The translations under genes and the position numbers were made by a program. From NCBI GenBank assembly GCA_965248435.1, contig OZ252100.1:2240001-2304000 (forward strand): DNA of 64,000 nucleotides, given 5' to 3'. Below the pieces are notes generated by a model, which saw nothing but the letters and a program-made list of their open reading frames with translations, had not been told where the DNA came from and ran no database searches. Source of the stretch: Candidatus Latescibacterota bacterium. GTDB taxonomy: Bacteria; Latescibacterota; UBA2968; GCA-2709665. This document shows, piece by piece, positions 36,769 through 46,807 of the stretch; position 1 is the stretch's first letter, and each line of letters begins with the position of its first letter.

Positions 36769-36784
36769 TGCAAGGGGCGTGCCA
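36769..36784 (-). promoter_or_regulatory. sigma54 -24/-12 promoter (kinase-MMPL-EEP unit)
   Basis: Minus strand TGGCAC-GCCCC-TTGCA, perfect consensus, 47 bp before ATG. Confidence 0.88.
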
Positions 36785-36896
36785 TAGCAAGGATCATCTT
36801 CCATTCTAATGGTTAAGATTCTGTTATTACTGTTGATAGTCTCTTGTAGCCAGTACGGAATGAGGTACGGTTCAGCGTCTCTGGAAACGAGATTGC

Positions 36897-36930
36897 TTGC
36901 GCGACATTGCGGGAAGTTGCACGGTCCTGC
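36897..36930 (-). promoter_or_regulatory. Putative upstream activator sequence 1
   Basis: Minus strand CGCAATGTCGCGCAA (36897-36911) within GCAA/GCAG boxes phased at 10 bp. Confidence 0.65.
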
Positions 36931-37048
36931 ACTTCTTCTGCCGCTTAGAATAGACCCTGTGGGAAGCGTAATCGTGATTGGCTGTGAGAAGGGTATGGCT
37001 TGGAGGATTCGGTGCTTCGCGGAAACAGAGGCGGTGCCCCGCGACCTT

Positions 37049-38161
37049 CTAGACGATCTCCTCCAGGACGAAATCGCCATAGAAGAAGGTCTTGTCGCGT
37101 TGATGTAGCCGGTAGGAGAACTGATCGAGGGAACGGAGTTGTGATGCGAGGTAGTCTGGTCGGCGACGGGGGGTCAGCAAGTTCCAGTAAGCGATGCGTC
37201 CGCCGGTGCGCCCGACGTAGATGAGCCTTTCCAGAATAAGATGGTGAGACTCGGGCGGCATGTACTCAAAGATGTTGCTCAGATTAAACCGATCGAAACT
37301 GTTCGCAGGCTGTTTCCTCAGGCAGTCCTCGACTGACTGGCAACGCCATTCTAGCGCCCTGAGATTGTTTCGTATCGCTTCGAAGTTCTCGGGTCGAAGG
37401 GCATAAGGCAACGCTGTCAGGTGCTTTCCAGTCAAGATCCACTGAAGGTATGGATTCCGAGCGGGATCCAGATCTATAATCCCGTGTCGCGTGCGCTCCA
37501 GGATGCGGTCCGCCACGGTACCCTCCACATATCTGAAAAAGTTTGGATCCCGACCCAGCCTCCCCATAACTCGCCGAGAAAAGAAGAGCTTGAAGAGACA
37601 CCTCCACCGCAACGTGTCCCAGTGCCGGCCGTAGAAGGCACGCCGTCTTTCGCTTGTGCGGCTTTCAAGAAGTTGGGCGATCCGATCCCTCGAATGAACC
37701 AGGGGAAGAACGCGGTTCCTGAAGAGGGCGAGGTAGCGCTCAAACTTTCCGCAATTACCGATTCCCCCGGCGATGGCATCCGGGTGGGCGTCCCAGAACC
37801 CGCGTGTCGCAGATGAGAGTTGCGAGCGACAGCGTCGGTAGAGAGAAGCACGATTTAGTCCAGAGGTAACTCCCATCAGTTCGAGAAGCTCTGGATGGCG
37901 CAGCTCCTGGTAGGCGGCGACACGAAGCTCGAGACACGCGATCTGGGCCGGGCTGAGGTCCAGGGCCAACAGCCGCTCTGGTCCCTTGCTCAACAAGGCC
38001 ATACAGTTGTCACCGGCGGAAGCGATGGAGAGGCAATGGTCGCCTGGCTGAATATCCAGACCTTCTAGAAGGATGTCGGCATCCTCCCAGCACTGGGCGT
38101 ACCTGATAATGGAGAAGTCGGCGTCGACGCACGCACCGCGGCATTCGGAAATCATCGTCAA
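37049..38161 (-). CDS. DUF3419 / BtaA-like SAM-dependent 3-amino-3-carboxypropyltransferase family
   Basis: IRYAQCWEDADIL, SIASAGDN, DLSPAQ, GKFERY, NPYLQWIL, FNLSNIFEYM, AYWNL. Confidence 0.88.
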   Translation of the reverse strand: MTMISECRGACVDADFSIIRYAQCWEDADILLEGLDIQPGDHCLSIASAGDNCMALLSKGPERLLALDLSPAQIACLELRVAAYQELRHPELLELMGVTSGLNRASLYRRCRSQLSSATRGFWDAHPDAIAGGIGNCGKFERYLALFRNRVLPLVHSRDRIAQLLESRTSERRRAFYGRHWDTLRWRCLFKLFFSRRVMGRLGRDPNFFRYVEGTVADRILERTRHGIIDLDPARNPYLQWILTGKHLTALPYALRPENFEAIRNNLRALEWRCQSVEDCLRKQPANSFDRFNLSNIFEYMPPESHHLILERLIYVGRTGGRIAYWNLLTPRRRPDYLASQLRSLDQFSYRLHQRDKTFFYGDFVLEEIV

Positions 38162-38167
38162 ACCTCC

Positions 38168-44529: not shown

Positions 44530-44579
44530 CGATGCTCCGACTAAGCTCAGCCGATGTTGCGGCTTCTTTAAGTAGCTCT

Positions 44580-46595
44580 TTAGGCGATTATATCTGACTC
44601 CGACTGCGCTCGAAGCAAATCCCTTCCGTCCTGCGACAACTCGTAGACGCGAGCCGCCCCTCGCTTGTGCCAGTCCAGATAGCCGAGGTCGGTCAGCTTT
44701 CTCAGGTCGTTCTGAAACGTCCTTCGGGAATCTCCGCTTCCCGATGCAGGGGACGCGATACGATTCATCACCTCGTTTACCGCGGAACCCCCCTCCTGCC
44801 GATGAACGACCTCCAGAATCCGCCTCTGCCTCTGACTCAGGGATCGCAGAGGCGGAGCCGGCCTTCGGGTCTGCGTACCCAGCGCGTGAGAGATGTCTGA
44901 TTCCGTAAGGGTTGGGCCTTTGGCGTAAACGGCAACGGCGCGTTCGATTGAATTTATAAGATCCCTCACATTGCCCGGCCAGGCGTGGTTCATCAGCCGA
45001 TCGATCGCAGATCGCGAAAAGCCGCGGAGCACCTTGCCCGAACGCTGCGAGATCCGCTCGAGGAAGGTCTGAGCCAGCAGTGGGATATCCTCCGGGCGCT
45101 CCCTCAAAGGGGGCAACCGGAGAGGAAGGACATTCAGTCGGAAATAGAAGTCCTCTCGGAACTCACCCCGGGCAATCATCTCCTCCAGATCCCGGTTGGT
45201 CGCGGCGACGATCCTCACGTCGGTCTGAATCGTCTCAGTTCCCCCAACCCGTTCGAAGGCCTGTGTCTCCAGAACTCGCAGCAGCTTGATCTGAGTAACC
45301 TGCGGAATGTCTCCCACCTCGTCCAGGAACAGGGTTCCTTGGTGAGCCAGCTCGAACCGACCCGGCTTCGCACGGTCGGCGCCTGTAAACGCCCCCTTCT
45401 CATACCCGAACAGTTCGCTCTCTAGCAGCGTTTCGGAAAACGCAGCGCAGTTCACTGCCACAAAGGGTTTTTCCTGGCGTAAGCTGTTCTGGTGGACGGC
45501 CCTTGCGGCCAACTCTTTACCTGTCCCTGTCTCACCCAGGAGCAACACGGTTAGATCTGACGCGGCCACCTGTTGAATCGTCTGACGGACCTGACGCATC
45601 TGCGGACTGTCGCCGATCAACCCGTGAACCCGATCCTCACTTTCCAACGCGCGCACCCGCATCTCCAGCGTCTTGATCCGCTCGAGATAATACTCCAGAT
45701 CCTTCCGATGTATGGCCTCGAGAATCGTTTGCGAGCGGGCAAGAATCTCGCCGTCATCCTGCAGCCGGATCATACGCGTTTCCGGTCTCCAGGTCAGCGT
45801 CCACCCGCAGGAACAAGCCTTTGCGATTTCTGCCCGGGCGGGGTTGTCCAGCTCCTCAATCCGCCCGTGCATCTCAATGCGCGGATCCTCCGCAAACGTA
45901 TCCCCATATAGCTGAAGTGTGCCCTGGATATGGAGCGCGGTGTCCATGAAGAAGGCCCCGATGTCCTTTTCCAGCCCGAAAGGCTTGAGGCACGCCGCAA
46001 GCCGTTCACGGTTCGCATAGTGAAAGTGAATCTGAAGCTGGTTTTCCCCGTCGGCACGCATCTCGATATGGACAAGGTCGCCCGTAAAGATCTGGCTCAG
46101 GACCAACGGCCCCAGCCACTGCAACAGTACCCCGATGTTGCGCTGGTCGTGAGCCGGTGGCAAAGCGGTGATCAAGAGCCCAATGAGACTGATCCATTCC
46201 TTGTGGGGTTCAACGGCCACACCCCCACCGCCACGTCCCATCCCCACGCAAAAATATTCAGGTTTGGGGACATCGGAATAGGTCTTGGCGAATTCGAACA
46301 GGAACTGGACCACGTGGACAAACGTATAGCCCGGATGCGCCATCAACAGCTCGTACTCCTCTGGACTGGCAAGCGCACGGAGTTCCTCGGACAGGCGCTG
46401 CCCTGCGGCCGCATCCACCTCGTTCGTCAAATACCGCACCGTCGTCTGGGCCAGCCGATTCGTCACCACGATCGACTGTTCCTGGGGGCTGAGCGACGCA
46501 AGATCGGCGTTTAGACCCGTGATCTGTACCGCTTTTCGCAGCCGTTTGAGAAAATCAGATTCGGCGGCCGTCTGCGTGGACGACGGTTTTGCCAT
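44580..46595 (-). CDS. sigma54-dependent enhancer-binding protein with unrecognised N-terminal domain and wHTH C-terminus
   Basis: [49 protein letters not shown]-terminal [18 protein letters not shown]. Confidence 0.93.
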
Positions 46596-46636
46596 GTGAG
46601 AGCTCCGGAAATGATGAAGAATCTGCGAAACTGTAT

Positions 46637-46670
46637 GCAAGAAGATGCAATGATACGCAATCTCGCGCAA
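46637..46670 (+). promoter_or_regulatory. Putative upstream activator sequence 3
   Basis: Four GCAA boxes at exact 10-bp period; core CGCAATCTCGCGCAA at 46656-46670. Confidence 0.65.
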
Positions 46671-46791
46671 CGCCAAAAACGTCCCAGTGAATGAACCTCG
46701 TGGGACAGCGGATTCCGGATTCTGATCTATCTGACATAAAAATAACATCTTAAGAAAATTTATCTCCCTGCAGCAAGTTTTGGCAGCTGGG

Positions 46792-46807
46792 TGGCACGGC
46801 ACGTGCC
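46792..46807 (+). promoter_or_regulatory. sigma54 -24/-12 promoter of the TonB receptor
   Basis: TGGCAC-GGCAC-GTGCC, invariant GG-N10-GC kept. Confidence 0.65.

Follow-up and report, generated by a model that had tools for sequence, protein, structure and literature searches.

A predicted winged-helix sigma-54 activator and one-turn direct-repeat arrays at three promoters of a Latescibacterota bacterium

Enhancer-binding proteins of sigma-54 promoters typically bind about 80-150 bp upstream, usually at palindromes. Nla28 of Myxococcus xanthus is a receiver-domain, Fis-type protein of this class. Tandem imperfect direct repeats, in clusters of three to five and with its own promoter included, are proposed as its sites in the accessible text of PMC9765219. 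In DVU0151 of Desulfovibrio vulgaris a predicted winged helix stands in place of the Fis domain, the sole non-Fis case among 37 activators in the available part of PMC4641369. Here we analyse a locus of a Candidatus Latescibacterota bacterium in a window of 64,000 nucleotides (positions 2240001-2304000 of a 5.66-Mb contig). Three sigma-54 promoters, P1 to P3, are each preceded by an array of GCAA boxes repeated every 10 bp, and between two of the arrays lies the gene for a sigma-54 activator of 671 amino acids (aa) (Table 1). From the sequence comparisons below we are fairly confident that this adjacent activator (46595-44580) reads the 10-bp-period RYGCAA arrays as upstream activating sequences. 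The enhancer is real, genome-specific and phylogenetically conserved, and the three promoters probably form a local regulon.

Mechanisms of this class have been described before; what is new is how the domains are combined and that the array keeps a fixed one-turn period, single ingredients having precedents in the Nla28 repeats and the DVU0151 winged helix. A preliminary description of this locus had taken palindromes to be the usual sites of such proteins, and for Nla28 direct-repeat enhancers had already been described; as far as the accessible text of PMC9765219 goes, the Nla28 unit is an 8-bp CT[C/G]CG[C/G]AG whose spacers vary in length, up to 25 bp being accepted, whereas the period in the window is fixed at 10 bp. 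DVU0151, compared here only by its described architecture, resembles the window activator in being a one-component protein with a long uncharacterised N-terminus, encoded divergently from its sigma-54 target operon, but carries a GAFSEA loop where the window activator has GAFTGA (available part of PMC4641369). Activators of the DmpR/XylR type share with it a sensor of the H-NOX/V4R-like fold group, a coiled-coil linker and the AAA+ domain; DmpR sites are palindromic, unlike the direct-repeat arrays of the window (accessible sections of PMC7264223). A protein of this type (PDB 6iy8) was the top Foldseek match of the full activator model. The likeness to the winged-helix proteins of the OmpR/PhoB type and to TubR is confined to the class of fold; none of these is a sigma-54 ATPase. 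The combination of a sigma-54 activator with a direct-repeat array, a winged helix and an H-NOX-fold sensor was not found in the literature searched, which mostly did not cover subscription papers, and searches for Latescibacter* sigma54 and for H-NOX enhancer-binding proteins returned nothing on such a regulator.

All three -24/-12 boxes lie at the coordinates and on the strands first reported for them, P3 being one base off the -12 consensus. A CGCAA-N5-CGCAA repeat had been placed about 105-135 bp upstream of each in the same orientation, and the three 15-mers (36911-36897 and 44477-44463 on the minus strand, 46656-46670 on the plus strand) do lie on the strand of their promoter and end 112 (P1), 104 (P2) and 121 bp (P3) before the box. 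The additional GCAA boxes reported at two of the sites are also present: array 3 has boxes 155, 145, 135 and 125 bp ahead of P3, and array 1 has them 136, 126 and 116 bp ahead of P1. The repeat unit is RYGCAA, with C or T ahead of GCAA, rather than strictly CGCAA, and an array comprises two to four such boxes at exact 10-bp spacing. The arrays had also been called phased. This is accurate for the boxes among themselves; relative to the promoter the phasing is weak, with a Rayleigh p of ~0.025 for the proximal box and no significance for the array centre (19 arrays, uncorrected).

Within the genome, the bare CGCAA-N5-CGCAA 15-mer is not enriched, the contig holding 13 copies where ~8 are expected. 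Rarity, which the preliminary description had set as a test, lies instead in the combination with a sigma-54 box, which is exclusive to the three sites and absent from the other sigma-54 boxes. Three of the 13 copies are followed by a box within 300 bp, and of 83 relaxed sigma-54 boxes on the contig only P1-P3 have a 10/10 match 60-200 bp upstream, the runner-up reaching 8/10. A matrix was trained on other genomes only, with 11 arrays and none from the window. It gave the three sites the scores listed in Table 1; the remaining 188 of 191 candidate boxes scored at most 6.1, and the regions upstream of the 20 other activator genes of this genome at most 6.0. All three array-bearing promoters lie within 10 kb of the activator gene. 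Their closeness, together with the modest count of the bare 15-mer (13 versus 8 expected), is what one would see if the sites were chance matches or a recent local duplication of one promoter, with no shared control. However, compared by eye the three sites differ in spacers and flanks but agree in boxes and period, and the pattern recurs in distant genomes whose activators are 47-59% identical to that of the window, the reversed control pattern occurring in 1 of 168 genomes of the phylum. We regard chance or duplication as largely refuted and give it next to no weight.

Four weaker arrays (scores 18.7-19.7) were seen at contig positions 1026586 (-), 314003 (+), 5067177 (-) and 1604398 (-), none of them followed by a sigma-54 box at the distance expected; they are possibly repression sites or chance matches. 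Contig-wide, CGCAA pairs are far commoner at a spacer of 2 or 9 bases (63 and 61 pairs) than at other spacers from 3 to 14 bases, and these pairs probably belong to a repeated element elsewhere in the genome.

Conservation was assessed in the surroundings of 13 activator homologues from 12 genomes, taking the 200 bp upstream of each start by position alone. The top shared dyad of two 4-mers was GCAA-N6-GCAA, present in 10 of the 13 regions; the best dyad in each of 20 shuffles reached 3-4. The unit consensus is W-D-W-Y-R-Y-GCAA (29 units; the GCAA columns are fixed by selection). Across the phylum, an array followed by 95-125 bp and a box occurs in 9 of the 18 genomes that encode the N-terminal domain of the activator versus 4 of the 150 that do not (Fisher p 1.2e-7, a value overstated by the kinship of the genomes). 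The array accompanies the family across four GTDB families while the target genes change. The motif is thus conserved upstream of orthologous activators and co-occurs with them, as would be expected of the single regulon that had been proposed for the TonB receptor and both operons; the exclusivity of the arrays supports the same view.

Several observations weigh against the activator as reader of these arrays. The strict pattern was missed in 9 of the 18 activator genomes, genome G077 matching at a longer spacing, and 3 of the 13 homologues have no dyad within 200 bp (the arrays of G105a and G116 lie farther off, and G105b has none). Genome G004, a single contig at 96% completeness, retains a 53-aa activator remnant yet has two intact boxed arrays (L035/L073 and L060), one of them at a desaturase promoter. 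Four more genomes (G094, G114, G145 and G035; 73-98% complete) match the pattern without a detected activator; in G094, which is 81% complete, the array lies between desaturase and EEP genes, which are targets elsewhere. The C-terminal query was not found in any of these five genomes, in a search run without a positive control. A consensus site for IHF between array and box is no better than in shuffles at the three window sites, although perfect matches occur at 3 of 18 promoters from relatives. Finally, when 185,579 genomes were scanned for three boxes together with a sigma-54 box, 10 loci came out. Two encode the window activator family, one is a desaturase/EEP locus and one a Latescibacterota locus; the remainder comprise three from Atribacterota, one with a PRD-type activator and two that look like chance. 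The three Atribacterota loci (L079, L084 and L085) have 10-bp TGCAA arrays behind a Fis-type PAS-AAA-HTH_8 activator, so such an array needs no winged helix.

Arrays that persist in G004 and the four genomes without a detected activator, and like arrays beside Fis-type and PRD-type activators, would suit a different reader: another of the ~21 activators of the genome, or a global regulator, with the adjacent activator as one of its targets. Against this, the array follows the family across the four GTDB families despite changing targets, the genome has only three array promoters, none more than 10 kb from the gene, and the pattern is absent in 146 of the 150 genomes without the family. Reading by another factor therefore appears very unlikely. 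The Atribacterota array and sigma-54 box precede an aminotransferase gene and, after it, two genes that look like those for phosphate butyryltransferase and butyrate kinase. In the PRD-type locus (L082:3987-4135), the gene of a PRD/PTS-regulated (LevR-like) activator is followed by a GTGCAA array and then by a sigma-54 box.

The activator favoured here as the reader of the arrays has an intact AAA+ core (PF00158, E 1e-72) with Walker A, Walker B and the GAFTGA loop. Together with the conserved upstream sites and the presence of rpoN, this places it among the sigma-54 enhancer-binding proteins; the genome has ~21 AAA+ activators and one rpoN gene. With aa 1-320 as query, 8000 candidates were scored and 34 of them have a similar architecture; the two that carry a taxon name are Latescibacterota. 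A full HMMER search against 1.84 billion representatives yielded 20 matches at E 0.001. By these searches the family is small. Of the 168 genomes of the phylum, 18 encode its N-terminal domain; these all belong to the class of the window, and the domain was found in none of the 36 genomes of other classes. In 5 of the 18 the best match region consists of fragments or has in-frame stops. In an AAA+ tree that also included one Atribacterota protein and 16 further activators from this genome, the 11 sampled family members form one side of a branch with support 100/98. The loop reads GAFTGA in 29 and GSFTGA in 3 of 33 members (together 32 of 33). One member, P0007, has 1065 aa and is fused to Reg_prop (PF07494) repeats; G153 and G116 have longer open frames of a similar kind. 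A metagenome scan with a single N-terminal protein gave 109 pattern matches, none of them confirmed, and a word-index search with the winged-helix region retrieved only the query among 483 candidates, which is uninformative on wider relatives.

The Fis-type domain HTH_8 was not found in the window activator at E 0.1, where a control activator was positive with the same library, nor was it among the 25 of 39 families listed for the 33 members. Weak C-terminal Pfam matches were to winged-helix families (HTH_11 in 9 of 33). The C-terminus was modelled as three helices, a beta hairpin and a helix, and the model matches RosR (Z 13.9, root-mean-square deviation 1.5, 85 aa), TubR (Z 12.3) and MarR (Z 12.0). 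The third helix, the putative recognition helix, carries S623, R625, Q628, D630 and L631 in all 33 members; such near-invariance would be expected of a family whose members share a single target motif. The activator is thus predicted to have a winged helix in place of the Fis helix-turn-helix. RosR and MarR are dimeric palindrome binders, and TubR binds direct repeats head-to-tail. PhoP binds head-to-tail to 7-bp direct repeats separated by a 4-bp spacer (available text of PMC4832192). Since winged helices are known to bind in this way one turn apart, we infer that the array geometry fits such a domain. The predicted winged helix and the H-NOX-fold sensor described below, both missing from the preliminary description, would best explain the geometry.

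The fold matches to RosR and MarR also bear on another possibility. Activator and sites would be the same, but a head-to-head dimer would bind every 10-bp unit as a degenerate palindrome (TTGCGCAA, appearing as T-Y-R-Y-GCAA), an array then being a run of dyads. The four bases ahead of GCAA are the dyad base or its transition partner in much of the set (T in 17, Y in 24, R in 29 and Y in 28 of 29 units), the left half of the unit thus resembling a TTGC degenerate by transitions, and among 49 units 7 read as a perfect TTGCGCAA and 6 as TCGCGCAA. When the search was not anchored, however, GCAA-N6-GCAA was found in 10 of the 13 upstream regions against 3 for TTGCGCAA and 4 for GCAA-N2-TTGC. Distances between GCAA boxes in 21 promoters, part of them picked with the 10-bp pattern, peak at 10 (30 pairs), 20 (13) and 30 bp (5), whereas no TTGC-TTGC pair is 10 bp apart. 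We therefore consider palindromic units unlikely and prefer the head-to-tail direct repeat.

The sensor was folded alone from 21 sequences, with a predicted local distance difference test (pLDDT) score of 92. Its best matches are H-NOX proteins (Z 11.5, 11.2, 10.4 and 10.3; top match with root-mean-square deviation 3.4 over 175 aligned residues), followed by VirS (Z 10.1) and CdpR (Z 8.3), and the top rows of a Foldseek search are likewise H-NOX, at E 2e-3 and weaker. The XylR/DmpR likeness (XylR_N plus V4R; Atlas lead 0.79) amounts to a weak fold match, with Z 5.6 and 5.4 for the V4R sensors of PoxR and DmpR, and neither XylR_N nor V4R is among the 25 families listed for the 33 members; activators of that type have a Cys/Glu zinc site, and the window sensor has just two conserved Cys. 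Sequence comparisons lend the H-NOX assignment no support: comparison of the sensor with H-NOX profiles gave no similarity (hhalign probability 0.4), and a PDB sequence search with the N-terminal profile found nothing under E 0.02. Unlike the H-NOX gas sensors to which it was compared by fold, the window sensor is without the haem His and YxSxR. No His occurs at positions 154-172, where helix F was placed by secondary-structure order and not by residue-level superposition, in any of the 33 members; YxSxR is absent at 180-205 in all 33 versus present in 16 of 16 control H-NOX proteins of the phylum. Of this motif only the Tyr is kept (Y193 in 28 of 33). Conserved residues are H94, C116, H222, C263, W265 and W269; of these H94, C116, H222 and C263 are other possible ligands. 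The best reading of the models is an H-NOX-fold pocket without canonical haem binding. We would guess that its ligand is hydrophobic, going by the target list and by what the VirS entries bind; that several targets have no family speaks against the guess.

Array 3 lies 41-75 bp ahead of the activator ATG at 46595 as well as 121 bp ahead of P3, and autoregulation had been suggested on these grounds. Relatives support it. G150, G127 and G082 keep an array where the activator gene begins, and neither strand carries a sigma-54 box within ~400 bp of it; such an arrangement would make little sense if the array did not control the activator gene. In G105a the activator itself is faced by a sigma-54 box that comes with a perfect IHF consensus. 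G116 and G127 have a box ~1.1 kb upstream that also points towards the activator, the array being oppositely oriented. Inside array 3 no sigma-70 consensus for the activator was found at the scan threshold. In a related strain from another study (run X5), one contig (depth ~4.6) skips window positions 46576-46776, with array 3 and the activator start, and aligns on both sides; its TonB part differs at 168 places. Possibly this strain has lost the regulator, or the skip is an artefact of assembly.

We propose the following mechanism. The activator would use its predicted winged-helix domain to bind the arrays head-to-tail, each 10-bp unit taking up one winged helix and all of them lying on the same face of the DNA. 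The haem-less H-NOX-fold pocket would hold a ligand that is small and probably hydrophobic, and the signal of this ligand would be relayed through the long helix 281-319 and allow the AAA+ ring to assemble. The ring would contact sigma-54 polymerase by looping across the AT-richer spacer of 100-120 bp and switch on the three local promoters and with them lipid-modifying and envelope-transport genes; occupancy of array 3 would likely also control the divergent gene of the activator itself. A tentative and, on present evidence, somewhat doubtful extension is that this is an undescribed one-component class, in which an H-NOX scaffold without haem ligands senses a lipid, an isoprenoid or a metal, winged helices polymerise head-to-tail so that the number of boxes (two to four) sets ring nucleation at each promoter, and an array serving both sides has repeatedly recruited different lipid and envelope genes.

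Table 1. Coordinates of the array-bearing promoters, the activator and the predicted target genes in the window.
Feature	Position	Strand	Remarks
Sigma-54 -24/-12 box P1	36784-36769	-	TGGCACGCCCCTTGCA; 48 bp ahead of ATG at 36721
Sigma-54 -24/-12 box P2	44358-44343	-	TGGTACGCCCTTTGCA; 56 bp ahead of ATG at 44287
Sigma-54 -24/-12 box P3	46792-46807	+	TGGCACGGCACGTGCC; 170 bp ahead of TonB receptor ATG at 46977
Array 1	36897..36926	-	Three (Y)GCAA boxes, 10-bp period; predicted upstream activating sequence of P1; matrix score 26.2
Array 2	44463..44482	-	Two boxes, 10-bp period, the first a perfect TTGCGCAA dyad; matrix score 23.5
Array 3	46631..46670	+	Four boxes, 10-bp period; matrix score 31.0, top of genome
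Hairpin	44499..44530	-	14 pairs and T run; likely terminator of activator gene; between activator stop codon and array 2
Sigma-54 activator gene	44580..46595	-	671 aa; between arrays 2 and 3
Activator domains			H-NOX-fold sensor, aa ~44-277 (predicted); long helix, 281-319; AAA+ with GAFTGA, 326-575; winged helix, ~582-671 (predicted)
Predicted P1 operon	31720..36721	-	Membrane protein, MMPL/RND transporter, EEP-domain protein
Predicted P2 operon	37049..44287	-	Formyltransferase, acyl-CoA-ligase/OleC-like (two frames), UbiA-family prenyltransferase, PEP-synthase/rifamycin-phosphotransferase-like, DUF3419
TonB-dependent receptor	46977..49875	+	Two frames (46977-49217, 49048-49875); predicted P3 target

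P3 points away from the activator gene, and P2 follows the activator stop codon and the hairpin, whose assignment as a terminator rests on shape only (a consensus scan found 2 against 2.9 expected in shuffles). The first gene of the P1 operon, a membrane protein without a Pfam or NCBIfam match, may be phytol-kinase-like, going by a motif only. The predicted targets of the arrays vary and are mostly lipid and envelope genes. In G077, G004 and G094 they include a fatty-acid desaturase with condensation and GH3 genes, and G077 also has a divergent pair of an MMPL gene, its product 72% identical to that of the window, and MipA. Other targets are an EEP gene (G105a), LPP20/CsgG lipoproteins (G161, G157 and likely G149) and an acyltransferase with an MFS gene (G116). 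The array-controlled operon of G079 contains a RoxA-like di-haem cytochrome gene (L039:4953-6470), a hint at polyisoprenoid substrates. No Pfam family was found for 15 of 33 scanned open reading frames.

The five P2 genes occur in none of the fetched activator loci. A cassette of UbiA, PEP-synthase-like, DUF3419, membrane kinase-like and acyl-CoA ligase genes was found in 5 of the 168 genomes of the phylum (window 35720-43587; L117-L120); the four other genomes lack the activator, and their cassettes have no array-bearing box. Our literature search found nothing relevant on this cassette. From DUF3419 to the first P1 gene the gap is ~100 bp in those four genomes versus 327 bp in the window; array 1 and P1 occupy the wider gap, so that the cassette has likely come under control of the activator here.

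The genes for the ligase and the TonB receptor are each split by a frameshift (at window positions 42556-42590 and 49036-49217), and contigs from the same sample agree letter for letter. At both splits the X5 strain (depth ~4) has 1-base and 2-base indels of a size that would join the frames. The breaks thus look real and recent, and two genes of the regulon may be recent pseudogenes.

The locus offers a complete and testable set of regulator, sites and targets in a phylum known almost only from metagenomes. If the proposed binding is true, it would show a non-Fis domain loading a ring-forming sigma-54 ATPase from a direct-repeat array, and the short genome-specific site could serve as an orthogonal part for sigma-54 biosensors. 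The analysis also adds a predicted haem-less H-NOX-fold sensor, and points to the lipid cassette of UbiA, PEP-synthase-like, DUF3419 and ligase genes as inducible in this organism.

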